A stretch of 64,000 nucleotides of DNA from Candidatus Magasanikbacteria bacterium RIFCSPHIGHO2_01_FULL_41_23 (GTDB lineage: Bacteria > Patescibacteriota > Patescibacteriia > Magasanikbacterales > UBA922): NCBI GenBank assembly GCA_001782805.1, contig MFPT01000021.1:10546-74545 (forward strand). Reading direction: 5' to 3'. The position numbers and the translations under genes were made by a program. Of this stretch, positions 19,398-62,366 are shown one piece after another (position 1 is the stretch's first letter; each line of letters opens with the position of its first letter). The notes below the pieces were generated by a model. It saw only the letters and a list, made by a program, of their open reading frames with translations, was not told where the DNA came from and made no database searches.

Positions 19398-20012
19398 TTA
19401 TATGACTTTATCCGCCAAACCATAGGCCACGGCTTCGGTTGGATCCATAAAATGATCGCGATCAGTGTCTTGTTCTATGCGACTGATTGGTTGTCCGGTA
19501 TGATCAGCCAAGATTTGATTGAGTCGGTCTTTAATTTTTAAAATGCGTTCGGCGTGAATTTTGATATCACTGGCTTGGCCTTGCGCGCCGCCCAATACTT
19601 GATGAATCATAATTTCGCTGTTGGGCAAACAAAAACGTTTGCCTTTTTGACCGGCGGCCAAAAGCACTGATGCCATGCTCGCGGCCAAACCAATACAAAT
19701 GGTGGAAACATCGGATTTTATATATTTCATGGTGTCATAAATCGCCATGCCGGCTGTGACCGATCCACCCGGGGAATTGATGTACAATTTGATATCTTTT
19801 TCCGGATCTTGGTTTTCCAAAAATAAAAGTTGCGCAATCACAATATTGGCCACATGATCATCAATTTCCGTGCCCAAAAAAATGATCCGGTCTTTGAGCA
19901 GGCGCGAATAAATATCATACGCGCGCTCGCCGGACGATGTTTTTTCAATGACAGTGGGGATGAGATATTGGGCGGTGGGCGCAATGGTATTTTTAATACT
20001 GGTATTATTCAT
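19398..20012 (-). CDS. clpP: ATP-dependent Clp protease proteolytic subunit
   Basis: Full-length ClpP pattern: [24 protein letters not shown], catalytic Ser region [14 protein letters not shown], and the His/Asp region. Confidence 0.9.
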
Positions 20013-20265
20013 ATATATCGTGATTTCCTATATGTATAAAAATTACTTCGTTATTATTTCTGAATTGAAATATTATACGTAGTTTGTATGTTAAACGAAA
20101 AGACCATAAATCCAACAGATGTCCCTTTAGTTTGTGAGTTTGCAATGTATTGTCAAATGGATTTATGCAAAATATTTTTTCTTTTTCTTTAGCAGTTGCC
20201 TTTGTTTCATCGGTACATTTTTTATACTCCCGAATAAAAGATTTTGCATAATAAATATATAGCAT
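20005..20265 (-). CDS. Type II toxin-antitoxin system toxin, RelE/YafQ family
   Basis: 86 aa. The C-terminus [41 protein letters not shown] fits the RelE/StbE/YafQ signature. Paralog of 48482..48739. G-rich RBS 8 nt upstream of the ATG. Confidence 0.7.
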
Positions 20266-20283
20266 ACCCCCCCTTTTTTTATT

Positions 20284-20481
20284 TTAATTATCCAAATCTT
20301 TTAGTGAAGACAGATGATAAATTCTACCTTTTTTTATATCGCGCATTGACGGCCATAATTTCCACAACAAAATATATGGACTAATGGCGTGACGGAATCG
20401 AAAATATAACCCACTACGATTGGGGATTTTATTTTTCCGTGTATCGAGATTACACTGTAGAGTCGCAGTTATTTGTTCCAT
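20284..20481 (-). CDS. Putative cognate antitoxin-like small protein (member of a 3-copy paralog family; RelB/DinJ-like by position only)
   Basis: 65-aa ORF ending 18 nt before the toxin start. The C-terminus DIKKGRIYHLSSLKDLDN aligns with the C-termini of 48757..49023 (EREFRAGKGKILHSFADLDKD) and 49554..49784 (QRQFKAGKAIKLNSLADLD). Confidence 0.4.
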   Translation of the reverse strand: MEQITATLQCNLDTRKNKIPNRSGLYFRFRHAISPYILLWKLWPSMRDIKKGRIYHLSSLKDLDN

Positions 20482-20514
20482 ATATTCATATCATACGGTA
20501 AAAAAATTCATTCG

Positions 20515-22734
20515 TCAAACGGTCGTTGCCATTTCTTTTTTAAATCCACAGCCCTTGGTCGCACACTTAACCGTTCCTTTGGCGCCAAAGATAAGCGGAG
20601 CATAACACTGTGGACACATTTCTCCGGTTGGTTTGGTTGGTAAAATATTTTTGCATTCCGGATACTGATTGCAACTGTAAAAAATTCCACGTTTGCCTTT
20701 TTTCCCCACAAATTCTCCGACTTTACAAAGATTGCACATCACACCGGTTTTATTTTCTTTCTTTTTAATGTTTTTGCATTCGGGATATCCACTGCAACCA
20801 AGGAATGAACCAAAACGACCACGTTTGAGCGCCATTGGTTTGCCGCATTTTTCACAAACTTCTTTGATTTCATTGGCGAGCTCGGCCGCTTCTGCACTTC
20901 CTGGAATTGGTTTGGTGCTTTTGCACGTGGGATAATTAGTGCAGGCAATGAATTTTCCAAATCGGCCGATTTTTATGACCATGGCACTTTGGCATTTCGG
21001 ACAAATTTCATCGGTTTTTTCCTCGGTAATATCTTTTTTAACCAATGTTTCGGTTTTTTCAACAAGATTTTTGTGGAAAGGTTCATAAAATGTGGCGATA
21101 ATCGGTTGCCAATCTTTGGTGCCTTCGGCAATCGCGTCCAAATTTTCTTCCATTTTGGCGGTAAATTGATAATCCACAATATCGCCGAAATGTTCAACCA
21201 ACAAATCATTGACCACGAGCGCGATGTCAGTGGGTTTAAAGCGTTTATGTTCATCGCGTTCCACATAATTGCGATCTTCAATTGTGGCAATCGTTGGCGC
21301 GTACGTTGATGGCCGGCCGATGCCATATTCTTCCAAGGCTTTGACTAAAGTAGCGTCCGAATAACGCGCGGCTGGTTCGGTAAAATGTTGTTCTTTTTTT
21401 AATTCTGTGCAGGGAATAATCGCGTTGATTTTTAAATCCGGCAAAATCGTTTCCGTGCCAGTGTCGGGCATAATCGCCAGCCAGCCGGGAAAAAGAAGGG
21501 TTTGGCCGGTGGCGCGGAAAATATACGGATTACTGGCAATATCCACGCTTACTCGATTGAGTTTGGCCGCAGTCATTTGCGTGGCAACTGCGCGTTGCCA
21601 AATTAAACTGTACAATCTTAATTGATCGTTGCTCAAGTATTGTTTAATTGATTCCGGCGATAATCCGGCTTCGGTCGGGCGAATCGCTTCGTGCGCTTCT
21701 TGTGCGTTTTTGGATTTGGTGGCATAACGACGTGGTTTTTCCAGTGCGTAATCAGAACCGAATTTTTGCATTACAAATTCACGCGCGTCAGTCGTGAATT
21801 TTTCCGACATATTAAGCGAATCCGTACGCATGTAAGTGATAAGACCGGTATGTCCGGCCGCGCCCAATTCCACGCCTTCATATAATTGTTGCGCCAAACG
21901 CATAGTATTTTTGGCGGAATATCCCAAACGTTGATTCGCGGTTTGTTGCAGTGTGGACGTAGTAAATGGTGGTGGCGGAACACGCGCGGCTTCTTTTTTT
22001 ATAACGTCTTTAATGGTAAATGTCTTACCGACTAATTCGCTGATTATTTTTTGCGCTTCAATTTCAGTTTCAATACTCAATTTATGTAATTTTTTGTCTC
22101 CTATCGCAATGAGTGTTGCCGGAAATTCGTGCGGATGCGCATTAAAAATTCCAATAATACTCCAATATTCTTGGGTTTTAAAGGCTTGAATTTCTCGTTC
22201 TCGCTCCACCACCAAACGTACGGCCACTGATTGCACGCGTCCGGCGGATAATCCACGCGTTACTTTTTTCCACAAAAATGGGGATAATTCATAGCCAACC
22301 AAACGATCAAGTACGCGACGCGCTTGTTGTGCGTCTACTAATTTTTGATCAATGTGGCGCGGATTGGCAATCGCCGTATCCAGCGCGTGTTTGGTAATTT
22401 CATGAAATACTATTCGCTCGGCAGTTTCAACCGGAATGTTGCAGACGTGAGCCAAGTGCCAGGAAATGGCTTCTCCTTCCCGATCTTCATCAGTCGCGAA
22501 TATAATGCGGTCGCTTTTTTTTGCCAAGTCTTTTAATTTTTTTACTTGCGCGGCTTTTTCTTTGGGAATTATATATGTTGGCAAAAAAGTTCCGCCCTCA
22601 ATGTCAATGCCGATTTTGCTTTTGGGCAAATCACGAATATGACCGAAAGATGACTCGACTGTGTAGCCGCGTCCCAGAAATTTAGTAATAGTTTTGGCTT
22701 TGGCCGGAGATTCAACGATAACCAATGTTTTCAT
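20515..22734 (-). CDS. topA: DNA topoisomerase I with C-terminal C4 zinc-ribbon repeats
   Basis: Toprim N-terminus MKTLVIVESPAKAKTITKFLG. Active-site region around LITYMRTDS. Four CxxC..CxxC zinc-ribbon modules at the C-terminus. Confidence 0.9.
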   Translation of the reverse strand: MKTLVIVESPAKAKTITKFLGRGYTVESSFGHIRDLPKSKIGIDIEGGTFLPTYIIPKEKAAQVKKLKDLAKKSDRIIFATDEDREGEAISWHLAHVCNIPVETAERIVFHEITKHALDTAIANPRHIDQKLVDAQQARRVLDRLVGYELSPFLWKKVTRGLSAGRVQSVAVRLVVEREREIQAFKTQEYWSIIGIFNAHPHEFPATLIAIGDKKLHKLSIETEIEAQKIISELVGKTFTIKDVIKKEAARVPPPPFTTSTLQQTANQRLGYSAKNTMRLAQQLYEGVELGAAGHTGLITYMRTDSLNMSEKFTTDAREFVMQKFGSDYALEKPRRYATKSKNAQEAHEAIRPTEAGLSPESIKQYLSNDQLRLYSLIWQRAVATQMTAAKLNRVSVDIASNPYIFRATGQTLLFPGWLAIMPDTGTETILPDLKINAIIPCTELKKEQHFTEPAARYSDATLVKALEEYGIGRPSTYAPTIATIEDRNYVERDEHKRFKPTDIALVVNDLLVEHFGDIVDYQFTAKMEENLDAIAEGTKDWQPIIATFYEPFHKNLVEKTETLVKKDITEEKTDEICPKCQSAMVIKIGRFGKFIACTNYPTCKSTKPIPGSAEAAELANEIKEVCEKCGKPMALKRGRFGSFLGCSGYPECKNIKKKENKTGVMCNLCKVGEFVGKKGKRGIFYSCNQYPECKNILPTKPTGEMCPQCYAPLIFGAKGTVKCATKGCGFKKEMATTV

Positions 22735-43730: not shown

Positions 43731-44078
43731 TTATAATGCGCTCACTGCGCGCAAAAGTTTGGCGCAATCGCGGTAATAATGCGTGATGAGTTCTTTGGTT
43801 CTCATGTCTTCGGTCGCGCTTTTTTGATTATGTAAATCCACGATAAAAATTGTTGTCTGCTCCGCGCGCAATTTAATAAGACGATCCGTGATTTGATTTC
43901 TGTTTTCGATTGGCGCGGCCAAAAGTCGTTGTTTCCAATAACTTAATTCTTCATCAATATGTTTTAATCGTTGTTCTTTTTTCAAACCACGAGTTTGTTG
44001 ATGGCGATTTTTGGCAAATTGATGCGCGCGCGCTTGATCGGTCGTGGGCACTATATTATTTAAGTACATAGGCCTCAT
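43731..44078 (-). CDS. Hypothetical protein overlapping the 3' end of clpC
   Basis: 115-aa ORF with a 23-nt overlap with clpC, suggesting co-transcription. No motif recognised. Confidence 0.35.
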   Translation of the reverse strand: MRPMYLNNIVPTTDQARAHQFAKNRHQQTRGLKKEQRLKHIDEELSYWKQRLLAAPIENRNQITDRLIKLRAEQTTIFIVDLHNQKSATEDMRTKELITHYYRDCAKLLRAVSAL

Positions 44079-46593
44079 GCTCTTGAGTCAACGTATAATG
44101 AGATTTGCGTCCTCGAGTTTTCGTTTGTTTTTTTAATAATTCAATTATCAGTTCAGGCACAATGCGTTCAATTAAATTCTGCACGGGTCGCGCTCCCAGA
44201 TCCGGGTGATATGACTCTTTAGCCAATGCCGCCAGTACGGTTTGATCAGCCGAAATGCTTAAACTTTTGGCAGTCATAAGTTCACGACTGAGCTGGGCAA
44301 TTTGCTGGGCGATTATTTGTTCAATCGTATCTTTATTGAGTGGCGCGAAAATACAGAGTTTATCCAAGCGACTCATAATAGCCGCTCCCAATTCTTCTTT
44401 GACCGCGGCAGTGATTTTTTTGTCTGTATCCGTGCCATAGATTGCGCCAATTGCGCTTTCGCCAAAACCAAAGCCATTGGTTTTGAAAATTTCCGCACCA
44501 ATGTTCGCGGTCATAATTATAATCGCGTGATTAAAATGGACTTTTTTGCCGCCCGCGTCAGTAAGTTCACCTTCGTCTAAAATTTGCAATAATAGCCGAC
44601 GCACATCAGCATGCGCTTTGTCTATTTCATCGAGTAAAATAATTGAATATGGCCGACGACGTAATTCATCGAATAAGCGATTGCGATCTTTGTACCCGAC
44701 ATAGCCGGCGGGTGAGCCCAAAATTTTGGCCACGCTGTGCGGCTCGGCAAATTCGCTCATGTCTAATTTTATCAGTGCTTTTTCATCATGGTATAAACCT
44801 TCGGCCAATAATTTGGCCAGTTCGGTTTTGCCTACGCCGCTCGGACCAACAAACAAAAATGAGGCAAATGGTTTTCCTTTGCGACCCAAACCCAAGTAAC
44901 GTTCCTTCAGTGTGCGCACAATGTTGTCAATGACCATGTCTTGACCAACTAATAGTTTTTTAAGCATATCTTTGGCCTGATCAAGCATATCCCATTCACT
45001 GCTTTCCAATACCGCACGATCAACTCCCAAACGATCAGCCAACGTTGACACAATATCTGCCGGCGAAACTACTATGGGATTTTTTATATTTTTTTTAACC
45101 GTGAACTGACGAATTTTGACCGCGAGTTTTTTCATTTCGTTCTGTAATTTGCTTAAGGTTTTTTTGTATGTTTTGGCGCCATTGATATTTTTTGCTTCCA
45201 ACGCCGCGGTTTTTTGTTTTTCTATTTCCGTGATTTTTCGTTCCAATTGAACTAATTTTTGACTCTCTGAATTTTTATATTTTTTAACTTTTACCGCGGC
45301 CGAGGCTTCGTCCAGCAAATCAATCGCTTTATCCGGCTGATACGCATCATGCAGATATTTGCCACTCAAAGCCACTGCAGTTTCAATCGCGGCCGGAGTA
45401 ATGGTCAAATGATGAAATTCCTCATAATATTTTTTGACGCCGTTTAAAATAGCAATTGTCTGTGTTGTAGTTGGTTCAGCCACAAAGACCGGCTGAAAAC
45501 GACGTTCCAAGGCCGGATCAGCCGCCACATATTTTTTATACTCATCGTACGTAGTCGCGCCAATGCAGTGTAATTGACCGCGAGCCAGAGCCGGCTTGAG
45601 AATATTCGCGGCATCAAGCGTTCCTTGATTGGAACCGGCTCCGATAATAGTATGCAGTTCATCAATAAACAAAATACTATGTTCGCTTCGTGACAACTCG
45701 TCAATCACTTGTTTTAAACGCGATTCAAATTCACCGCGATAAATTGTGCCCGCGATCATCAGCGTTAAATCAAGTGACAGAATTTTTTTGCGGCGCAAAA
45801 TATCCGGCACATCATCGGCACAAATCCGTTTGGCCAAGCCTTCCACAATCGCGGTTTTGCCCACGCCCGGCTCGCCAATAAGAATAGGATTATTTTTGGT
45901 GCGTCGACAAAGAATATTTATCACTCGATTGATTTCTGTGTCGCGTCCAATCACCGGATCCAATTTTTTTTCTACTGCCTTGTCGGTTAAATTTACGGTA
46001 AAATATTGAACTGCGCTTTGTTCCGCTTTTTTCTTTTTACTTCCGCGCAAGGTATTTTCCGCCGCGTCATTTTGTTCATCAGCTTTATGAGTCAAAGAAT
46101 CCATGGTTTCAATCATGTCATCAATCGTCGTGCTTTGGCCGCTGGTTTCCAACGCGGTTCTGACAAGTTTTGCCAATTCACCACGTTCAGTTTTGGCCTT
46201 GGAAAAAATAGTAGTTAATTCTTTGTCATCGTTTTCCAACAACGCCAGCAATAAATGTTCAGTGCCAATATAGCTGTGTCCGCGTTCAAACGCGATGAGG
46301 AGCGATTTTTCAATTGTCCGACTGGCTCCTTGGCTTAAATCAGGCAATGACGGTCGTCCGTCTTCGGTTTTTTCAATTGGCCGTCGTTCAGCGCTGTGCC
46401 GAATTTCTTCTACGGGAAAATTGGCTTTTTTTAAAATTTCCACAGCTACCGAACCCGGCTCTTCCATCAGGCCGATAAATAAGTGATATGGTTCCACTTG
46501 AGCCAAGTGGGCATTGTGCGCCAGAGAAATCGCACGCGCGATGACATTTTTGAGATGAGTGGAAAAATTGTCCAGCAGTTTTTGGGGGGTCAT
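44056..46593 (-). CDS. clpC: Clp/Hsp100 AAA+ chaperone ATPase, ClpC-type (two AAA domains, Clp-N repeats, middle linker)
   Basis: Clp_N repeats at the N-terminus. AAA-1 Walker A GEPGVGKTAIVEGLA. AAA-2 Walker A VGPSGVGKTELAKLLA. Sensor-2 and Clp D2-small domain. 845 aa is ClpC-like. Confidence 0.85.
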   Translation of the reverse strand: MTPQKLLDNFSTHLKNVIARAISLAHNAHLAQVEPYHLFIGLMEEPGSVAVEILKKANFPVEEIRHSAERRPIEKTEDGRPSLPDLSQGASRTIEKSLLIAFERGHSYIGTEHLLLALLENDDKELTTIFSKAKTERGELAKLVRTALETSGQSTTIDDMIETMDSLTHKADEQNDAAENTLRGSKKKKAEQSAVQYFTVNLTDKAVEKKLDPVIGRDTEINRVINILCRRTKNNPILIGEPGVGKTAIVEGLAKRICADDVPDILRRKKILSLDLTLMIAGTIYRGEFESRLKQVIDELSRSEHSILFIDELHTIIGAGSNQGTLDAANILKPALARGQLHCIGATTYDEYKKYVAADPALERRFQPVFVAEPTTTQTIAILNGVKKYYEEFHHLTITPAAIETAVALSGKYLHDAYQPDKAIDLLDEASAAVKVKKYKNSESQKLVQLERKITEIEKQKTAALEAKNINGAKTYKKTLSKLQNEMKKLAVKIRQFTVKKNIKNPIVVSPADIVSTLADRLGVDRAVLESSEWDMLDQAKDMLKKLLVGQDMVIDNIVRTLKERYLGLGRKGKPFASFLFVGPSGVGKTELAKLLAEGLYHDEKALIKLDMSEFAEPHSVAKILGSPAGYVGYKDRNRLFDELRRRPYSIILLDEIDKAHADVRRLLLQILDEGELTDAGGKKVHFNHAIIIMTANIGAEIFKTNGFGFGESAIGAIYGTDTDKKITAAVKEELGAAIMSRLDKLCIFAPLNKDTIEQIIAQQIAQLSRELMTAKSLSISADQTVLAALAKESYHPDLGARPVQNLIERIVPELIIELLKKQTKTRGRKSHYTLTQEHEAYVLK

Positions 46594-46643
46594 AATTTTG
46601 ACTTTTAGGCGTTAGCTTTATACAATAACTATACTTTATTTAA

Positions 46644-48476
46644 ATGAAAATTTCCAGCCCTTATAATATTGAAAGTATGAGAGAAGGTCTAAGTACTATA
46701 TTGGCTCAAATCAAGGATAAAAAGGTTTTGTCCCCAGAGGCTCTTGTTAATCTCACGATTTGGCTCACCCGAGAAGATATGGCGGAATTTCGTGTCGAGA
46801 TTTTTGACTTATTAAACCAGGGAAATTATGAACACTTAGAAGATGCTTTTTATACGCGAATTAAAGTTGGTACGGGAGGAATTAGGGGTATTATTGGTGT
46901 TGGATCAAATCGAATTAATCGTCGTACCATTGCTGAAGCCGCTCAAGCTTTGGCTGATTTTATTGCTGATTTTGGTGGAATCGCCAAACAGCATAGTGTA
47001 GTGATTGGATATGAAGCTCGAACCAATGCCAAAGAATTTGCTGAAATGTGTGCCGAAGTATTTGCGGCCAACGACATTAAATCATACATTTTTGATGGAC
47101 TACGCGCCACGCCTGAAATTTCTTTTGCTGTCCGTTTTTTGGGAGCAACTGCGGGTGTGCAAATTACCGCTTCGCATAATCCTCGCACGGACAATGGTTT
47201 TAAATTTTATTGGTCAGATGGTGGGCAGGTGGTACCGCCATTGGATTTAAAGTTTATGGAGTTGGTACAAAAAGTTGATCGCATACAATACCTAAAGTTT
47301 AGTGACGGGTTAAGAAAAAATTTAATTACCTTTATTGGTAAGGAGATTGACGAGGTATATTATCAAGCGATTCACGGTTTATCGCTTTCTCAAAGTCGTT
47401 CAGCCACGATTGTATTTAGTCCGATTCATGGTGCGGGAATCATGAACGTTTTACCCGTACTGCGTAATGCAGGGTATATGGTTGAGGTTGTTCCGGAACA
47501 AGCTGTGCCTGATGCACAATTTCCAACGGCAAAAGGCGATTTGATAAATCCTGAATATGAGGAAGTCATGGAATTGCCTATAAAATTGGCGGAAAAATTA
47601 GAGTATGACTTGGCAATTAATTCTGATCCTGATGCCGATCGGATCGGTGTTGCCGCTAAGAAAAAAATGAACGAAAGTACTGTCCAATTTTTGACCGGTA
47701 ATGAAATCGGCATTGCACTTGCTCACTTTATATTATCAGCCAGACAAGCGAAAGGAGAGTTAACTAGCCATCATTTGCTTGTGGAAACATATGTCACCAC
47801 GTCGCTCATCGGTGACATTGCTCGGCGTTTCGGTATCACAGTTAAAGATGATTTATTGGTGGGATTTAAATTTATTGGTGAAGTGATTGAAAAATTAAGC
47901 GATAAAAAAGATTTTGTATTCGCGGCCGAAGAAAGTTTGGGATATCTAGCTGGTACGTTTGTCCGTGACAAAGATGCTGCGATTGCCGCTCTTTTATTGG
48001 CGGAGCTGGTATCCGAATGTAAAGATAAAGGCCAAACTTTAGTTGGTTATCTTGATGATATTTATCGTGTCTACGGTTATTACAAAAATCGTTTGCACAT
48101 GGCCGAATTTCCCGGCAAAAAAGGTTTTCAAAATATTCGTCGTATTATGATTGGTTTTCGTCAGAAACCTCCGACTGATTTGGCTGGCATTCCGATTTTG
48201 AAAGTGCTTGATCGTTTACCAGAAGCACAGCGTTCCGCTGAAACTTACAAAGTAGGTGCAACGGGGGATCAATTGACATTTATTTTTTCCGCTGATGAAA
48301 AAACTCGGGTTACAGTTCGCCCATCGGGTACAGAACCAAAGGTAAAATTTTATATACAAGACCGTTCCGATGTTGTCGGTGATTTGGAGGAAACGCGTTT
48401 GCATACAGACGCACGGGTTAATCTGTTGACGTTTGATATCATTGAATATAGCCGGCAATTTGTGCGAGAAGATTAA
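46644..48476 (+). CDS. Alpha-D-phosphohexomutase family (phosphoglucomutase/phosphomannomutase)
   Basis: Active-site Ser loop GVQITASHNP. Metal-binding loop DPDADR. Sugar-binding GEESLG-like EESLG. Four-domain PGM/PMM architecture. Confidence 0.85.
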   Translation: MKISSPYNIESMREGLSTILAQIKDKKVLSPEALVNLTIWLTREDMAEFRVEIFDLLNQGNYEHLEDAFYTRIKVGTGGIRGIIGVGSNRINRRTIAEAAQALADFIADFGGIAKQHSVVIGYEARTNAKEFAEMCAEVFAANDIKSYIFDGLRATPEISFAVRFLGATAGVQITASHNPRTDNGFKFYWSDGGQVVPPLDLKFMELVQKVDRIQYLKFSDGLRKNLITFIGKEIDEVYYQAIHGLSLSQSRSATIVFSPIHGAGIMNVLPVLRNAGYMVEVVPEQAVPDAQFPTAKGDLINPEYEEVMELPIKLAEKLEYDLAINSDPDADRIGVAAKKKMNESTVQFLTGNEIGIALAHFILSARQAKGELTSHHLLVETYVTTSLIGDIARRFGITVKDDLLVGFKFIGEVIEKLSDKKDFVFAAEESLGYLAGTFVRDKDAAIAALLLAELVSECKDKGQTLVGYLDDIYRVYGYYKNRLHMAEFPGKKGFQNIRRIMIGFRQKPPTDLAGIPILKVLDRLPEAQRSAETYKVGATGDQLTFIFSADEKTRVTVRPSGTEPKVKFYIQDRSDVVGDLEETRLHTDARVNLLTFDIIEYSRQFVRED

Positions 48477-48481
48477 AATTT

Positions 48482-48739
48482 TTAATGGTAAATACTGTGT
48501 CGGCCGATTTTATAAAAAATATATTTATTTTCTTTTTCAATTTTAAAAATTACTCGGTAGTCTCTGGTGATGGAAAAAGACCAATGTTCATTCCACGATC
48601 CGTTTAACTTATGAGTCTTTAGGCTAGAATTGAAAGGATCTACACGAAAAATATCCTCCCTTTCTTTGAATGATTGCTGTATATTTTTTGGACATTTTTT
48701 GTAAAGTCGACAAAAAATAGGTAAATAAATAATTTCCAT
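48482..48739 (-). CDS. Type II TA toxin, RelE/YafQ family (paralog of 20005..20265)
   Basis: 85 aa. KTHKLNGSWNEHWSFSITRDYRVIFKIEKENKYIFYKIGRHSIYH aligns with the other toxin copy and with the RelE/StbE signature. Confidence 0.7.
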   Translation of the reverse strand: MEIIYLPIFCRLYKKCPKNIQQSFKEREDIFRVDPFNSSLKTHKLNGSWNEHWSFSITRDYRVIFKIEKENKYIFYKIGRHSIYH

Positions 48740-48756
48740 ACCCTCCTTAAAATAAT

Positions 48757-48963
48757 TTAATCTTTATCTAAGTCAGCAAACGAATGAAGAATTTTACCTT
48801 TTCCGGCACGGAATTCTCGTTCGGCTAATTTGATATGTATTATATCCCACAGATAATACCAAAAATATTTTATCCGGTGCTGTAACAAAGCAAAACCCCT
48901 TAATTTTTTTGGTTTTATGTCAAACTGTGCTGATTGAAGAATTGATTGATTACTATAATTCAT
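48757..48963 (-). CDS. Putative antitoxin-like small protein (paralog family member), upstream of the RelE/YafQ-like toxin
   Basis: Conserved core IKPKKLRGFALLQHRIKYFWYYLWDIIHIKLAEREFRAGKGKILHSFADLDKD. The ORF track start at 49023 overlaps the SDR fragment. An internal Met at 48963 avoids the overlap. Confidence 0.4.
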   Translation of the reverse strand: MNYSNQSILQSAQFDIKPKKLRGFALLQHRIKYFWYYLWDIIHIKLAEREFRAGKGKILHSFADLDKD

Positions 48964-48974
48964 AAAAAAGTAGG

Positions 48975-49520
48975 CTACAATAATATATTTCGCATTATCT
49001 TTGTTGTCAAAGCTCTCGGACAAACGCGCAATAATTGAATAATTATTTTATGGCGCCAACTGGGAATGATAATTCTTTTATTTTTCATTAAACCAGCATA
49101 GGCGATTTCCGCCACAGAGCGCGCATTCATTACTCCGTTGTTTTTAAAAATTTCTGTTTTGTCAGCTCCGGCTCTATTTTGAAATGAAGTTTTTGTCGGT
49201 CCGGGACAAAGCGCGGAAACAGTCACGCCAGTGTGGCGAGTTTCTTCACTCAATGCTTCGGAAAGTGACAAGACGTATGCTTTGGTGGCAAAATATACGG
49301 CCATAAATGGCCCGGGCTGAAAGGCCGCGGTTGAAGCCACGTTTAAAATTTTACCGGACTTTCTCGCCATCATTTCCGGAAGAAATAAACGGCACAGCGA
49401 CGTCAGCGCAGTTATATTCAATTGAATCATTTCAATATTTTTTTGGTCATTGGTTTCGGCAAATTCACCATAATCGCCAAAGCCTGCGTTGTTGACTAAA
49501 ATTAAGGGAAAATGCGCACT
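48975..49520 (-). pseudogene. 5'-truncated short-chain dehydrogenase/reductase (SDR) gene fragment
   Basis: Encodes ..LILVNNAGFGDYGEFAE.. (NNAG motif) and the YxxxK active site (AVYFATKAY). The N-terminal Rossmann TGxxxGIG region is absent. The frame is closed by a TAA just upstream, adjacent to the orphan antitoxin-like gene. Confidence 0.55.
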
Positions 49521-49553
49521 GATCTTTTAATTTTCCGTCCTTTTTAAATAGTA

Positions 49554-49784
49554 TTAATCCAAATCCGCAAGTGAATTGAGTTTTATTGCTTTCCCAGCTT
49601 TAAATTGTCGTTGGCTTATTTTTACGTTAATGTAATCTCTGGTATCGTACCAATGAAATTGCATACGATGCCATATATGAAGAAAAAACCCGACTTTTTT
49701 ACGGTGAGTAATTGGTTTGGAAACGACCTGATTCACAATAACTAAATTCATAATATGAGAAAATATATTTTTACTATACCACAA
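49554..49784 (-). CDS. Orphan antitoxin-like small protein (third paralog), inserted upstream of the truncated SDR
   Basis: ITHRKKVGFFLHIWHRMQFHWYDTRDYINVKISQRQFKAGKAIKLNSLADLD aligns along ~55 aa with 48757..48963. No adjacent toxin. Confidence 0.4.
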   Translation of the reverse strand: MWYSKNIFSHIMNLVIVNQVVSKPITHRKKVGFFLHIWHRMQFHWYDTRDYINVKISQRQFKAGKAIKLNSLADLD

Positions 49785-49830
49785 ATAATATATTAGTCAA
49801 CCTGAAATTGTGAGGAAAAAATCGTTTTTG

Positions 49831-50703
49831 TTAAACCATCTCGCGTAATTGTTTGATCCGCTCAATAATCGGCGGATGCGTGGAAAAAAGATTGGTTAGA
49901 TTTTTTCCTTTAAAAGGATTGGAAATAAATAAATGAGCCGTGGCCGTGGATGCGGTTTCCAGCGGTTGATTGGAAGCCGAAATTTTTTCCAGTGCCCGCG
50001 CCAAGCCTTCGGGATAACGGGTCAAAAGCGAACCAGAAGCATCTGCTAAAAATTCGCGTTTGCGCGACACTGCCAATTTGATGAGCTCGGCAATAATCGG
50101 TGACAAAAGAATTAAGACAAGGCCGGCAATCGCCAAAATCCCGCCGCTTTTATTGTCATTATCCGATGATCGTCGCCAATTGGAGTGTAAAAACCAATTA
50201 GCCATAAGGGAAATGGCGCCAACCAACACAATGACAATCGTCATGACGCGGATATCATAATTTTTGACATGCGATAATTCGTGCGCGATCACGCCTTCCA
50301 ATTCTTCATTTTCCAACGCCTGAATAATTCCCGTAGTAAACGCAATTGATGAATGTTTGGGATCGCGTCCGGTGGCAAAGGCATTTAAAGCCGGGCTGTT
50401 AATGATATAAATTTTAGGCACGGGCAAGCCGGCAGTAATACACAAATTTTCCACTAAATTATACAAATAAGGATTGTCTTTTTTGGCGATGTGTCGCGCG
50501 CTAGTTGAACGCAAGGCAACTTTGTCACCATGATAATAACTGAATAATGTCATGACGAGTGAAATGAAAACAGCCAAAACAATCGCTTCCGATCCATAAC
50601 CAAACCAGGTTTTCAAAACCCAACCAAGCCCGGTGATAAACGAGATGAAAATCAAAATTAAAATAATGGTGCGATGTTTGTTGGCGTCGATTTGGGAATA
50701 CAT
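49831..50703 (-). CDS. htpX: Zinc metalloprotease HtpX (M48 family)
   Basis: HEXXH motif AHELSHV. Four TM helices. Typical HtpX length. Confidence 0.85.
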   Translation of the reverse strand: MYSQIDANKHRTIILILIFISFITGLGWVLKTWFGYGSEAIVLAVFISLVMTLFSYYHGDKVALRSTSARHIAKKDNPYLYNLVENLCITAGLPVPKIYIINSPALNAFATGRDPKHSSIAFTTGIIQALENEELEGVIAHELSHVKNYDIRVMTIVIVLVGAISLMANWFLHSNWRRSSDNDNKSGGILAIAGLVLILLSPIIAELIKLAVSRKREFLADASGSLLTRYPEGLARALEKISASNQPLETASTATAHLFISNPFKGKNLTNLFSTHPPIIERIKQLREMV

Positions 50704-50704
50704 A

Positions 50705-51268
50705 TTAAAATTTAACCGTTACATTTTCTCGTTCAGTCGCATCGGCAATTTCAAAGAAATCAAATTTCACAAACTTAAGCGTGTTGCCAATCAGATTCGT
50801 GGGAAATACTTCCAGTTTAGTATTAAAGTCCCGTGTTTGGCCATTGTAAAAGCGGCGGGCGGCCATAATTTTATTTTCCGTGTCAGATAATTCATCCATG
50901 AGTTGCGCCACGTTCGTATTAGCTTTAAGATCAGGATAGGCTTCCATGCTAACGCGCAGATTGCCCAATAAATTACCAAGCATACTTTCAGCTTTGGCCA
51001 GATCAGTGTGCGAGCCGGATTTTTGCGCTTCCATGGCTTGCGAACGGGATTTGGTAATGTTTTCCAATAATCCGCGTTCGTGACTTAAGTATCCTTTGAC
51101 ACTTTCCAACAAATTGGGAATTAAATCATGTCGGCGTTTGAGTTGAACATCAATATCACTCCACGCTTCTTTGGTGCGATTGCGCGCGGTAACTAAACCA
51201 TTGAATGTTACCACGAGCCAAATAACAAAAACCGCCAATATAATAAGTAAAATCATTGACATTTCCAT
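50705..51268 (-). CDS. lemA: LemA-family membrane protein
   Basis: N-terminal TM helix followed by ..AWSDIDVQLKRRHDLIPNL.. of the LemA family. Forms the common lemA-htpX pair. Confidence 0.8.
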   Translation of the reverse strand: MEMSMILLIILAVFVIWLVVTFNGLVTARNRTKEAWSDIDVQLKRRHDLIPNLLESVKGYLSHERGLLENITKSRSQAMEAQKSGSHTDLAKAESMLGNLLGNLRVSMEAYPDLKANTNVAQLMDELSDTENKIMAARRFYNGQTRDFNTKLEVFPTNLIGNTLKFVKFDFFEIADATERENVTVKF

Positions 51269-57545: not shown

Positions 57546-60500
57546 ATGACTGATTTTGTCCATCTTCATGTCCACTCGCATTATTCGCTCTTGAATGGCT
57601 TAACCAAAATAAAAGCCTTGGTTAAGGCGGCGAAAGCGCGGGGATTTTCCGCTTTAGCATTGACTGATTATGGATCAATGTATGGCGCTATTGAATTTTA
57701 TCAAGCGTGTTTGGCCGAAGGAATTAAACCGATTATTGGATTTGAAGCATACATTGCTCCACGAAGTAGACTTGATAAAGATCCGGCGCATGATTCGACA
57801 TTGTATCATTTAATATTACTCGCGGAAAATTATAATGGCTATAAAAATTTAATGAAGCTGTCGTCGTTTGGCCATTTGGAAGGATTTTTTAATGGGAAAC
57901 CACGCATTGATAAAGAATTGTTGCGGAAATATCATGAAAATATAATTGTTTTGTCCGGACCGATTGAAGGCGAAATTCCCACATTAATAAAAAATGGTGA
58001 GATTGCCAAAGCCAAAGCAGTGGCGCGGGAATATCAAGAAATGTTCAGTTCGACTTCGCTCACCGCGAGTGGATCGGATTATTTTTATTTGGAATTGGAA
58101 GATCATCCGGCAATCTCCGGCCAAATTGAAGTGAATACTAAATTAATTGAATTGGGAAAAGAATTGGGAATTCCGTTGGTGGTAACGCGTGATGTACATT
58201 ATTTAAATCCGGATGATGATGAGGCGCAAGATATTTTGCGTTGTATTGCCGAAGGTTGGCGCGTGGATCAGCCGAATAGAATTGATTATCGCGGCGTTGA
58301 TCGGTCGTTCGCGACTGGCGATGATATTGCCGCGCGTTTTCGGCATGTTCCGGAAGCAATTGCCAATACGATAAAAATTGCGGAGCGTGTGAACATTCAA
58401 ATAGAATTAAACAAATGGCATTTTGCGCCAGTGGAATTACCTCCGGGCAAAACTGCGGACGATGTTTTGGCCGAAGAAGCACATAATCGCGTTACGATTT
58501 ATTTTAAAGAAAAAACGGCTGAACTTACTGAACGTTTGAATTATGAATTGGAAATTATTAAAACAAAAAAATATTCGCCGTATTTTTTGTGCGTGGCGGA
58601 TTTTGTGCGTTATGCCAAAGATCATGGGATTGTGGAATCAACGCGTGGTTCAGCCGCTGGTTCATTGGTGTCGTATGTTATGGGAATTACGACTGTGGAT
58701 CCGATGCGATTTAATTTGCCGTTTGAACGATTTTTAAATCCGTTTCGTCCCAGTCCACCGGATGTGGATACGGATTTTGCCGATGATCGTCGCGATGAAA
58801 TGATTGAATATGTCACGAAAAAATATGGCGCGGATAAAGTGGCGCAAATTATTACGTTTGGAACTATGGCCGCGCGCGCCAGTGTGCGCGATGTTGGTCG
58901 TGCTTTGGGATTCGCGTATTCTTTTTGCGATCAAGTGGCCAAATTAATTCCGCAAGGCGCGCAAGGTTTTCCCATGACGATTGGTCGCGCACTGACGGAA
59001 GAACCGGATTTGAAAAAATTATATGAACAAAACGCGGATGTAAAACGTTTGTTGGATTTGGCGCGAAAAGTTGAAGGCTGTGCGCGGCATACTTCCATTC
59101 ATGCGGCCGGAGTGGTGATTGCGCCGACCGCGCTGATGGATTTTTCGCCCGTGCAATATGAAACCGGTGGCACGCGGATTACCACGCAATATGAAATGAA
59201 ATCCGTGGAAGCGGCCGGAGTTTTAAAAAATGATTTTTTGGGAATTCGCAATTTGGCGATTTTGGGAAACGCGGTGGAATTCGTGAAAAAAACCACGGGT
59301 CAAGAAATTGATATTTATAATTTACCGTTGGACGATGCCAAAGTTTATGAAATGTTGGCGCGCGGAGAAACGATGGGTGTTTTTCAGCTTGGTGGTTCGG
59401 GTATGACGCGCTGGCTAAAAGAACTGAAACCAAACCGGATTGAAGATATTATGGCCATGGTGGCGCTGTATCGTCCTGGACCAATGGAATCTATTCCCGA
59501 ATATATTCGCCGCAAATATAATCCTGAGGCGGTAAAATTTTTTGATTCGCGGTTGGAAAAAATTCTCGGCGCTTCGTATGGATTGTTGGTATATCAAGAC
59601 GATGTGATGTTGACTGCGATCGCACTCGCTGGTTATGATTGGATGGAAGCGGATAAGTTTCGCAAAGCCATGGGCAAAAAAATTCCCGAAGAAATGGCCA
59701 AACAAAAAGAACAATTTTATAAAGGTTGTCAGGAAATAGGCAAAGTAAAAAAAGATATTGTTGATGAAATTTGGCATGCGATTGAACCGTTTGCCGCGTA
59801 TGGGTTTAATAAATGTTTGGTAGGAGAGACTGAAATTGTGGACGCGGCAACCGGAGCAATAAGAACCATCAAGGAAATGTACGAGCAAAAATCGAGGATG
59901 TCGGTATTAAGTTTGTCGGGCTATAAGAAATTAATTAAAAGAAAAATAATTGATATCTATAAAAACGGGAAGAAGCCAGTGTGGGAAATTACTATTCGCA
60001 GTGGCCGGAAAATTACTGCCACGGGCAATCATCCCTTTTTAAAATTTGGCGGCTGGTTCAATTTAGAAAAATTATGTGTCGGTGATTTGATCGCCGTACC
60101 AAGAAAAATTGACTATCGGCCGAGTGCTGATTTAGATTCTAAAAAATTAAAAGTATTGGGCTATTTGTTATCAGAAGGAAATCTCTGTCATCCTTACGGC
60201 GTTTATTTTTATTCTTCAGTCGAGGTAGAAATCCAAGATTTTATTACCGCTGTAAAATCATTTTCTAATTCTAATGTTACGATTAATAGAAGTAAAAGCG
60301 CAGCAGCTGTCTATGTGGGGCAAATCAATCCCAAATTTAGGAACAATTTAATGTTGTGGCTTAAAGAGCTGGGTTTGTATAACAAAAAAGCCACGGAAAA
60401 ATTTATTCCCGAATTTATTTTCAAATTATCACCGGAAAAAATCGCAGTGTTGGTTGGATCGATGTGGCAGGGCGATGGCTGTGTACATGATGACAAAAAT

Positions 60501-62366
60501 GGGCAAATATATTACGCGACCAGTTCAGAAAAGTTAGCTCAGCAAATGCAACACTTACTTTTGCGGTTGGATATTTTGAGTACGATTTATACCAAAAAAT
60601 TTACTTATAGGAATGGCCTAAAAATTGGTTATACGATTAATATCAGCCGTTATAATAACTTGGCCAATTTTGCGCACACGGTGGGTCAACATTTATTGCC
60701 AAACAAAAAAATCATCTTGAATAATATTATTAAAAAAAATAAAATTCTGAATGGCACACTACACACTGGCGTGGCTCGAGGCAGTAAAGATGTTGTGCCG
60801 GCACAAATTTTGGAGTTGATAAGAAAAGAGTTGGGGCAGAAAGGAATAACCATAAAGACAATATCCCAAGAATTGAAAATAGCTGAAAGATTATTTTATC
60901 AAGATACAAAACGGAAAGGCTATTTGCGGGAGACAGTTGGGAAAATCGGCATCTATTTGAAAAGCACTAAATTGTTACAGGAAGCGCGTTCAGAATTGTA
61001 TTGGGACGAAATTGTTTCGATAAAGTCGCGGGGCATGCAAGAAACCTATGATTTGACTGTCCTAGGCGAACATAATTTTGTCGCCAATGATTTCGTGGTG
61101 CATAATTCGCATGCCGCCAGTTATGGCATTGTCGCTTATCAAACCGCGTATCTCAAAGCGCATTATCCGGTGCAGTTTATGACCGCCATTTTGCAAGCCG
61201 AAGCCAGTGATTTGGAAAAAGTGGCGGCCATTGTGTATGAGTGCGGACGCATGGGCATTGAAGTTTTGCCGCCGGACATCAATGAAAGTTTTAAAAGTTT
61301 TGCGATGGTTTCCAAACCCGGACTCCTCGACCCTGCTCAGGGTAAACCCGGTCGGATTCGGTTTGGTTTAAATGCGATTAAAAATGTCGGCGAACATATT
61401 TGTGAAGTTATTTATCGCGAACGCAAAGAACATGGCGCGTATCAATCTCTGGAAAATTTTTTGGAGCGAATTACGGATAAAGATTTGAATAAAAAATCAT
61501 TGGAAAGTTTAGTCGTGGCCGGAGCGCTGGATTGTTTTGGATTTGATCGCAACGTACTTTTTGCCAACAGCGAAAATATGTTATTTTTTTACCGACAAGC
61601 GCGCGACAGGGAATTGACCAAACAAGATTCATTGTTTGCGGCCACGGATATTAGTTTGGATTCCAAAGTAATGCTTAAGCCAGCGCCGAACGCGACGATG
61701 GAACAGAAATTAACTTGGGAAAAAGATTTGTTGGGATTATATTTGTCCGCGCATCCGTTGCATCCATTCGTGGATGCGTTAAAAGGTGTGGTGATTCCTT
61801 TAGCCGAAGTGGAATCTGCGCCGCGCGACAGTTGGGTCGTATGTTTTGGTGTGGTGGAATCCATCAAGAAAAAAATTACTAAAAAAGGCGATATGATGTT
61901 GTTTGTGGTAATTCAGGATTTGTCCGCCACAATGGAACTGTTGGTTTTTCCCAAGACGTACGCGCGCACCAAAGATCTGTGGTTGGAACGCGCGCTGATT
62001 TGTATTGTGGGGAAAACGCCGCGCGAAGAAGGAGAAAATAAAATTTTTGTGGAAAATGCCTATGAATTGCGGCGTGAAACTATTTCCGACTTGGCGCGGC
62101 AACTGGCATTATCCGTAGGGCAGAAATTAAATTCCGACGTTGGTGCCGTGCCCGAAAAATATCTGCGCATTATTTTGTCCGCGGATGAATTACAAACATC
62201 AGCCGAACCAATTAAAACCATTTTGGCCACGCATCCAGGAGATACGACGGTTTATTTGCAAGTAGGAACAGGTACGATTAAAGTGGGAACTAAAGTGAAT
62301 GCGAGCGAAGAACTTTTGTCCGAGTTGATTAAAATTTTAGGAGATGCAAAAGTTGAAATGTTTTGA
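57546..62366 (+). CDS. dnaE: DNA polymerase III alpha subunit (DnaE) interrupted by a full-length intein
   Basis: PHP domain HLHVHSHYSLL. Pol IIIalpha core motif FAAYGFNK / SHAASYGIVAYQTAYLKAHYP is split by the intein. OB-fold at the C-terminus. Carries an in-frame short GC-rich repeat (peptide KPGLLDPAQGKPG). Confidence 0.9.
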   Translation: MTDFVHLHVHSHYSLLNGLTKIKALVKAAKARGFSALALTDYGSMYGAIEFYQACLAEGIKPIIGFEAYIAPRSRLDKDPAHDSTLYHLILLAENYNGYKNLMKLSSFGHLEGFFNGKPRIDKELLRKYHENIIVLSGPIEGEIPTLIKNGEIAKAKAVAREYQEMFSSTSLTASGSDYFYLELEDHPAISGQIEVNTKLIELGKELGIPLVVTRDVHYLNPDDDEAQDILRCIAEGWRVDQPNRIDYRGVDRSFATGDDIAARFRHVPEAIANTIKIAERVNIQIELNKWHFAPVELPPGKTADDVLAEEAHNRVTIYFKEKTAELTERLNYELEIIKTKKYSPYFLCVADFVRYAKDHGIVESTRGSAAGSLVSYVMGITTVDPMRFNLPFERFLNPFRPSPPDVDTDFADDRRDEMIEYVTKKYGADKVAQIITFGTMAARASVRDVGRALGFAYSFCDQVAKLIPQGAQGFPMTIGRALTEEPDLKKLYEQNADVKRLLDLARKVEGCARHTSIHAAGVVIAPTALMDFSPVQYETGGTRITTQYEMKSVEAAGVLKNDFLGIRNLAILGNAVEFVKKTTGQEIDIYNLPLDDAKVYEMLARGETMGVFQLGGSGMTRWLKELKPNRIEDIMAMVALYRPGPMESIPEYIRRKYNPEAVKFFDSRLEKILGASYGLLVYQDDVMLTAIALAGYDWMEADKFRKAMGKKIPEEMAKQKEQFYKGCQEIGKVKKDIVDEIWHAIEPFAAYGFNKCLVGETEIVDAATGAIRTIKEMYEQKSRMSVLSLSGYKKLIKRKIIDIYKNGKKPVWEITIRSGRKITATGNHPFLKFGGWFNLEKLCVGDLIAVPRKIDYRPSADLDSKKLKVLGYLLSEGNLCHPYGVYFYSSVEVEIQDFITAVKSFSNSNVTINRSKSAAAVYVGQINPKFRNNLMLWLKELGLYNKKATEKFIPEFIFKLSPEKIAVLVGSMWQGDGCVHDDKNGQIYYATSSEKLAQQMQHLLLRLDILSTIYTKKFTYRNGLKIGYTINISRYNNLANFAHTVGQHLLPNKKIILNNIIKKNKILNGTLHTGVARGSKDVVPAQILELIRKELGQKGITIKTISQELKIAERLFYQDTKRKGYLRETVGKIGIYLKSTKLLQEARSELYWDEIVSIKSRGMQETYDLTVLGEHNFVANDFVVHNSHAASYGIVAYQTAYLKAHYPVQFMTAILQAEASDLEKVAAIVYECGRMGIEVLPPDINESFKSFAMVSKPGLLDPAQGKPGRIRFGLNAIKNVGEHICEVIYRERKEHGAYQSLENFLERITDKDLNKKSLESLVVAGALDCFGFDRNVLFANSENMLFFYRQARDRELTKQDSLFAATDISLDSKVMLKPAPNATMEQKLTWEKDLLGLYLSAHPLHPFVDALKGVVIPLAEVESAPRDSWVVCFGVVESIKKKITKKGDMMLFVVIQDLSATMELLVFPKTYARTKDLWLERALICIVGKTPREEGENKIFVENAYELRRETISDLARQLALSVGQKLNSDVGAVPEKYLRIILSADELQTSAEPIKTILATHPGDTTVYLQVGTGTIKVGTKVNASEELLSELIKILGDAKVEMF
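59814..61106 (+). mobile_element. Intein (431 aa) with LAGLIDADG/DOD homing-endonuclease domain, inserted in the conserved GFNK|SHAA motif of DnaE
   Basis: Starts with Cys (CLVGETEIVD), ends with ..VVHN, and is followed by Ser (+1). LAGLIDADG-like blocks LKVLGYLLSEGNL and IAVLVGSMWQGDG. The extein junction reconstitutes GYGFNKSHAASY. Confidence 0.85.

Follow-up and report, generated by a model that had tools for sequence, protein, structure and literature searches.

Gene content of the two loci

The window analysed here, a stretch of 64,000 nucleotides (nt) of the genome of Candidatus Magasanikbacteria bacterium RIFCSPHIGHO2_01_FULL_41_23 with an overall GC content of 41%, encodes two toxin-like genes and three small genes, all of which were found on the minus strand in its listing of open reading frames (ORFs). 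At the first locus, the small gene A1 (20284..20481) is followed by the toxin-like gene T1 (20005..20265), the stop codon of which overlaps the start of clpP (20012) by 8 nt (ATGAATAA at 20005–20012). At the second locus, the minus-strand order is lemA (50705..51268), htpX (49831..50703, specifying an M48 peptidase), an orphan small gene termed A' (49554..49751), the 3' fragment of a gene for a short-chain dehydrogenase/reductase (SDR; 48975..49526), the small gene A2 (48757..48963) and the toxin-like gene T2 (48482..48739), with pgm lying convergently on the opposite strand. The toxin-antitoxin (TA) cassette of this second locus thus stands directly downstream of the lemA-htpX pair.

Both toxin genes are small, encoding 86 (T1) and 85 (T2) amino acids (aa), and each lies directly downstream of its small partner gene, separated from it by a spacer of 17–18 nt containing a Shine-Dalgarno sequence (AAGGAGG ahead of the T2 start); co-transcription is probable. 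The ATG start codons annotated by GenBank for the small genes are located at 48963 (A2; A2821_02485, 68 aa), 49751 (A'; A2821_02495, 65 aa) and 20481 (A1; A2821_02360, 65 aa, the most diverged copy), and each is preceded by a sigma-70-like match. The site ahead of A2-T2 (48982..49010; TTGACA-17-TATATT) agrees with the consensus at 11 of 12 positions and falls in the 3'-terminal part of the SDR fragment; the orphan is preceded by TTGACT-16-TATAGT with an upstream TG (49773..49800, a consensus match), and A1-T1 by TTGACG-17-TATGAT (20490..20518, a consensus match only). All of these sites are on the minus strand. The original prediction, which was made from the letters of the window alone, had placed the orphan at 49554..49784. 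A third small gene with no toxin after it is indeed present, but the TTG codon at 49784 is probably too far upstream, and the start at 49751 is preferred because of the GenBank call of 65 aa and the promoter-like -10 box at 49773–49778.

That two paralogous toxins of the RelE/YafQ type are each preceded by a small gene, as originally proposed, is borne out by the ORFs and by the 44% identity of T1 and T2 (E-value 4e-24); a tblastn search with both toxins revealed no third toxin copy in the window. Both proteins match the YafQ, YoeB, HigB, ParE and RelE_StbE models of Pfam and NCBIfam weakly. T2 attains 30.2 bits on YafQ_toxin (Pfam) against a cut-off of 30, the sole curated cut-off reached by either toxin, whereas T1 falls below all of them (22.3 bits at best for YafQ; 24.5 against 27.9 for RelE_StbE). 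A profile of six toxins, comprising T1, T2 and four orthologues, matches the solved structures of HP0892, HP0894, HigB and YoeB with E-values of 3e-4 to 1e-2. Residues His43, Arg62, His81 and Tyr84 are invariant across these six proteins and align with Glu46 and Arg65 of YoeB and His50 and His87 of YafQ, so that residues of a catalytic type occupy the positions used by those two toxins. The two loci are best read as type II TA operons of the RelE/ParE superfamily, an assignment that is one part of the overall explanation developed below, to which as a whole we attach a joint probability of approximately 0.72. By homology, the toxins would be ribosome-dependent mRNA endonucleases of the YafQ/YoeB/RelE kind.

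Affiliation of the small proteins

The three small proteins had been described as a family that shares a conserved C-terminal segment and that could not be assigned to any standard antitoxin. The first part of this description stands: A2 and A' are 39% identical (E about 1e-9 in a whole-window tblastn search), and the tail follows the pattern ..S.REF.AGKGK.L.S.ADLD with a long helix ahead of it. The second part does not, as the tail is homologous to that of CopG/RHH_1 antitoxins, a ribbon-helix-helix (RHH) family found throughout the candidate phyla radiation (CPR), of which the small proteins are diverged members.

Searches of Pfam and NCBIfam with the small proteins gave no match at E≤1 save one chance match, and none of the Phd/YefM, RelB, DinJ and ParD families was matched, either in these two databases or among the sequences of solved structures. 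Matches to ribosomal protein uL4, the only ones returned when a small-protein profile was compared with the solved-structure sequences, were judged to be due to chance and discarded. Relatives of the window type are few (four in a word-indexed search; seven representatives in an exhaustive hidden Markov model search of 1.84 billion proteins), and the family looked isolated at first, its RHH-type relatives surfacing only through DNA loci of representative genomes. Scanning species-representative genomes for the tail yielded five loci, four of which (L001–L004) belong to two Wildermuthbacteria and two metagenome-assembled genomes (MAGs) labelled Saccharibacteria. These four encode an antitoxin of 72–73 aa (MRSIVNISLP..KSEFLRELIR...SEAEFRAGKGKILRSLADLD) that scores 27–31 bits on RHH_1 (cut-off 20.5), ends in the same tail as the window type and is followed by an orthologous toxin of 85–87 aa with 39–50% identity to the window toxins. 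The parent family comprises 427 clusters, mostly of 71–73 aa; among the matches listed, most of 120 parent-family clusters bear a precomputed RHH_1 match and, wherever the source name specifies an organism, this is a member of the Patescibacteria/CPR. Where the proteins are named, the designation is 'ribbon-helix-helix protein, CopG family'.

When a profile built exclusively from foreign RHH-type antitoxins was run against the 1143 six-frame segments of the window, the three ORFs took the top three places, with E-values of 2e-8 for A2 (matched tail HIKLAEREFRAGKGKILHSFADLD), 6e-5 for the orphan A' and 0.14 for A1. When the window and RHH types were compared profile to profile, the probability was 99.1% (E 4.6e-19) over 66 collinear columns, and a further hhalign comparison gave 98.3%, the bulk of the signal residing in the last ~25–38 residues. 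The RHH signature residues Ser30, Glu31, Arg34 and Arg38 (numbered after the parent alignment) are not conserved in the window type, and no RHH_1 match exists for the window copies or for about seven clusters related to them, as taken from the precomputed field for the listed clusters and from direct scans of the three window copies. Structure prediction with AlphaFold2 gave, for an RHH-type control, helix A (residues 11–23) and a long helix (29–58), which a loop of 9 residues connects to a short helix at the terminus. In A2 the long helix (23–52), the loop and the terminal helix were predicted likewise, but not helix A, residues 1–22 being unstructured and of low confidence.

From the sequence relationships we conclude that the window antitoxins are diverged descendants of a 71–73 aa CopG/RHH antitoxin family frequently encountered in CPR bacteria. 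Their sequences, together with monomer models from shallow alignments, suggest that the DNA-binding head has decayed or been replaced and that the tail was kept. The long helix and conserved tail would wrap and block the toxin, so that neutralisation would reside in the tail, and operator-binding autoregulation would probably be weakened or lost if the RHH head is non-functional.

The tail and its family were also met in other contexts. On a contig of Candidatus Staskawiczbacteria (MHPP01000008.1, L005; 420–620), the antitoxin tail ..LLRRIKISQKEFKEGKGKILRSLEDLM* ends a 190 aa ORF whose N-terminus resembles a histidine phosphatase by eye; no toxin gene was detectable near this ORF, which is apparently a fused relic of a cassette that has degraded. 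Another contig (L094:259-1117) encodes a window-type antitoxin (P0127, 83 aa), a toxin (85 aa) and then an extra RHH-type antitoxin of 71 aa without a toxin, and in L089 a further RHH-type copy (P0231) stands alone. Within this antitoxin family, orphans seem to recur.

History of the htpX-linked locus

The SDR fragment aligns with profile positions 80–193 (of 195) of adh_short (E 7e-31), and its full-length homologues, which are 257–267 aa in length, are at best 60–64% identical to it. Homology begins at LVNNAG (~nt 49505) and runs to the C-termini of the homologues, ending at the natural stop codon, so that ~84 N-terminal residues are gone; the 5' truncation noted originally was thereby confirmed and its break placed at LVNNAG. 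The fragment retains NNAG, the Ser and the YxxxK motif, together with all invariant columns, and within it GenBank annotates a 151 aa ORF (A2821_02490, 48975..49430). Its frame is closed upstream by an in-frame TAA (49527..49529), read directly from the sequence and located 25 nt past the stop codon of the orphan, and at the other end 11 nt separate the SDR stop codon from the ATG of A2. A sequencing error that had hidden the N-terminus in another frame had been named as an alternative, and was discounted when neither a TGxxxGxG Rossmann motif nor an SDR N-terminus was found in any frame of the 64-kb window. The GC content of the fragment (44–50%) exceeds that of the flanking TA genes (29–32%). 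The contigs L006 and L007, which carry two of its closest full-length homologues (63–64% identical to the fragment), have a GC content of 34–35%, and L006 additionally specifies an NFACT-R protein and the small subunit of a primase of the archaeal/eukaryotic type (PF01896). This hints that some of the nearest relatives of the fragment may be archaeal, possibly of the DPANN group, and that it may have arrived by transfer.

The closest relative found, a Logan contig (L093; 76% identity in HtpX and 62% between its partial toxin and T2), reads lemA(end)-htpX-antitoxin(P0125)-toxin, with neither an SDR gene nor a second antitoxin, and is collinear with the window except for ~870 bp that carry A' and the SDR piece. 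On the contig with antitoxin P0004, htpX is likewise followed directly by the antitoxin and no SDR is present. The order lemA-htpX(-Zn ribbon)-antitoxin-toxin recurs in L001–L004, and a further metagenome contig (L088) shows htpX-Zn ribbon-antitoxin-toxin, lemA not being called in the fetched stretch. An additional 80 htpX loci were chosen by HtpX similarity and fetched with flanks of up to 5 kb, and none of these contains an SDR gene near htpX.

Since htpX-antitoxin-toxin recurs without SDR in relatives and in other CPR lineages, the TA cassette is taken to be the resident and the SDR piece the newcomer. The explanation that we favour is that of a resident, htpX-linked TA locus that was rearranged, with the SDR piece as a passenger and not as a gene split by a jumping cassette; comprising the 3' two-thirds of the gene, the piece could not bind NAD(P) and is regarded as a dead fragment. 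A local rearrangement would have left two extras between htpX and A2-T2, namely a divergent antitoxin gene and the SDR fragment; the divergent antitoxin gene would keep its native promoter region but lack a toxin. A2-T2 is now preceded by the promoter-like site that lies in the SDR remnant.

Several observations weigh against this explanation. With regard to the small proteins, A1 is not significant by sequence alone (E 0.14), its assignment being made because of its position upstream of T1, its G..L.S..DLD tail and its third rank in the profile search. The N-terminal parts compared on their own match the RHH domain weakly (hhalign E 2e-4, probability 47%), and the A2 model, with a mean pLDDT of 69.5, was built on nine sequences and as a monomer, RHH domains being known to fold as dimers; the head may have been swapped for unrelated sequence instead of having decayed. 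With regard to the locus, 67 other htpX loci could be followed for 600 nt or more downstream and none of them has the cassette, and the antitoxin family occupies other sites too (L091, L094 and the first locus of the window). Linkage to htpX is therefore a minority state, and the cassette would have been gained or lost repeatedly, possibly with some mobility. Furthermore, with identities to the L093 antitoxin of 51% for A2 and 47% for the orphan, either of the two may be the original resident, and no toxin remnant could be demonstrated after the orphan stop codon by local alignment against shuffled sequence.

The interval between htpX and pgm seems to be variable. The assumption that the cassette is universally kept at this site was rejected, as it is carried by none of the 80 HtpX-similar loci. 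In the best HtpX match of the metagenome scan (L008, 68% identity), the stretch from htpX to the convergent pgm holds no TA cassette but an ORF that is CutA-like by eye (L008:1776-2165; 129 aa). A double Zn_ribbon_TFIIB protein of 177–204 aa often lies between htpX and the RHH antitoxin (L001, L003, L004 and L088) and is not present in the window; it follows htpX in L084 and is located upstream of lemA-htpX in L074, and no TA cassette was detected in either of these.

The orphan itself is 39% identical to A2, and because of this low mutual identity the two antitoxins of the locus are not considered recent duplicates. The intergenic region of L093 can be aligned to that between htpX and the orphan, with TTGACT at a comparable distance upstream of the antitoxin start (the two TTGACT motifs fall in different alignment columns), and the orphan and L093 have the 5'-untranslated region (5'-UTR)/start motif CATATTATGAA in common. 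A toxin or Shine-Dalgarno remnant after the orphan was sought and rejected, as the sequence there aligned locally with four antitoxin-toxin junctions no better than shuffled sequences did (p 0.2–0.55). Random sequence of the same composition would be open across 65 codons with P of about 0.006, a figure that is not evidence of selection because formerly coding DNA gains stop codons only gradually. Most likely, the orphan survives as an in-trans neutraliser, in which case it may serve as an extra source of toxin neutralisation, or is simply a slowly decaying remnant. It is bracketed by a 12-nt imperfect inverted repeat (49491–49502 and 49790–49801; GTTGACTAAAAT and ATATTAGTCAAC), one arm of which lies in the promoter-like -35 region of the orphan and the other at the SDR junction; as 27 such pairs occur within 1.7 kb of this AT-rich DNA, the repeat is probably due to chance.

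A more specific version of the favoured explanation assumes that A' is the resident antitoxin and that A2-T2 and the SDR piece were imported in one step by homology-facilitated illegitimate recombination. The donor DNA would have had the order SDR-antitoxin-toxin(-pgm), and recombination would have been homologous on the toxin/pgm side and illegitimate on the other, where SDR codon ~85 would have been fused to the beginning of the resident toxin gene. The retained htpX-adjacent position of the orphan, the motif that it has in common with L093, the divergence of the two antitoxins (39% identity, and hence no recent duplication) and the combination of a single junction (49505–49531) with the 11 nt between the SDR stop and the A2 ATG all suit a single imported block. 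However, the MNYS N-terminus of the htpX-linked antitoxins P0004 and P0125 is found in A2 and not in the orphan, the L093 toxin aligns with T2 at 62% identity, the apparent 5'-UTR similarity is short, and the TA loci that were inspected include no SDR-antitoxin-toxin donor. Two of the closest full-length SDR homologues (P0009 and P0007) were also considered for donor context and rejected, their contigs having no TA cassette beside the SDR gene. This route of import is possible but, on balance, doubtful.

It is similarly doubtful that an ancestral htpX-A'-T'-SDR-A2-T2 tandem suffered a single deletion that removed T' and the 5' third of the SDR gene. Such a deletion would account for both the toxin-less orphan and the truncated SDR gene in one event and is compatible with the single junction region at 49505–49531, and the cassette with an extra antitoxin gene in L094 demonstrates that multi-copy arrangements exist. 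However, neither the tandem state nor an SDR gene at the htpX site was found in any genome among those compared, and the deletion requires the prior insertion of the SDR gene and a second cassette, so that it is not more parsimonious overall.

Both TA cassettes border protease genes, the first one clpP (within 19398..20481) and the second one lemA-htpX (within 44056..51268), and a gene for a ClpB/ClpC-like AAA+ protein (44056..46593) is located ~2 kb from the second locus. This adjacency could reflect chance or co-regulation with proteostasis genes. Taken further, the antitoxins could be minimal, tail-only neutralisers that have truly lost the head, with the cassettes wired into proteostasis operons as a domesticated stress switch. 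We consider this improbable; if true, toxin release would be tied to the expression of proteases, both membrane and cytosolic ones, the cassettes would no longer be self-regulating selfish modules, and a stress switch would have been recognised in organisms with minimal regulatory repertoires. Elsewhere in the window, two large plus-strand ORFs of ~1600 aa each lie near its ends (193..5001 and 57546..62366).

The original prediction held that mobile TA genes, the cassette together with the orphan antitoxin, had split an intact SDR gene resident at the site by inserting into it, and this is not supported. Antitoxin genes do flank the SDR fragment on both sides, the GC contrast between the TA genes (29–32%) and the SDR piece (44–50%) would fit an insertion, and the TA family is found at more than one kind of site and is absent from most htpX loci, and hence moves or is lost. 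However, the 5' half of the SDR gene, which ought to lie beyond the inserted genes, is present neither in the 46–79 nt between the orphan and htpX nor elsewhere in the 64 kb; relatives hold the cassette at exactly the htpX-adjacent site without SDR, and SDR genes are absent from the fetched flanks of all 80 related htpX loci. Additionally, the junctions lack target-site duplications and terminal repeats. At 48975 and 49553, where repeats or att-like sequences had been anticipated, only short AT-rich matches of a chance kind occur, and the ORF listing contains no transposase or integrase between 46.5 and 51.5 kb. A disruption of this kind is very improbable. An assembly chimera or sequencing error, to which a metagenome-assembled source and a sharp change in GC content might point, can be dismissed almost entirely, as a European Nucleotide Archive (ENA) assembly from a different sample is identical across 5207 nt of the locus 2 arrangement, A2 is present on all 24 contigs read, 22 of which have this gene neighbourhood in common with one of the two places shown, and no alternative frame carries the SDR N-terminus.

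Implications and comparison with known systems

The analysis places three 'hypothetical' proteins in a known antitoxin family and, if the head has indeed been lost, provides a case of an antitoxin that keeps only its neutralising tail while the regulatory head decays. It also corrects an inference regarding the history of the locus, in that the TA genes would not be disruptors but a long-term resident cassette, with the fragment of a metabolic gene as debris beside it. That this TA family is repeatedly linked to htpX in CPR bacteria is a small lead for work on the stress responses of these uncultured organisms, and the general understanding of type II TA systems is unchanged.

The true parents of the window systems are the CPR CopG/RHH antitoxins (71–73 aa) with their toxins of 85–87 aa: they possess the same tail and partner toxins that are 39–62% identical, are of the same length class as the window copies and occupy the same htpX-linked position in several lineages. 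Among other known systems, DinJ-YafQ and RelB-RelE of Escherichia coli have the same antitoxin-first two-gene operon and a ~85–90 aa toxin of the RelE fold family, and the CPR parent antitoxins likewise consist of an N-terminal ribbon-helix-helix and a C-terminal toxin-binding extension. The window motif KTHKLxGSW aligns with KDHPLQGSW of YafQ, and GxHS with GTHA. The overall similarity is nevertheless marginal: only T2 reaches the YafQ cut-off, the window antitoxins are not DinJ or RelB according to Pfam and NCBIfam, they have no detectable RHH domain and their tail sequence is family-specific.

Among solved structures, the toxin profile matches HP0892 and HP0894 of Helicobacter pylori best (E 3e-4 and 6.5e-3, respectively), with an alignment that is nearly end to end (profile positions 5–82) at an identity of about 20–25%. 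In the YefM-YoeB system, an alignment of the toxin profile with YoeB spans 71 columns (E 4.6e-5; also PDB 2a6q) and takes in Arg65 and the WS..IT motif. The C-terminus of YefM likewise has a segment of the ..S...L..GKG type, and its likeness to the antitoxin tail is possibly convergent; in contrast to YefM, the window antitoxins have no Phd/YefM match in Pfam and their relatives are of the RHH rather than the Phd fold.

Finally, the orphan A' may be set beside the orphan antitoxins treated in a review (PMC7354431), which cites a survey of Klebsiella pneumoniae where a high percentage of them looked like decayed forms of once intact systems, and which notes that orphans may serve as anti-addiction modules. 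Like those orphans, A' is a toxin-less antitoxin gene beside signs of rearrangement; it differs from them in that it stands in tandem with an intact paralogous cassette and keeps both its promoter-like site and its tail.

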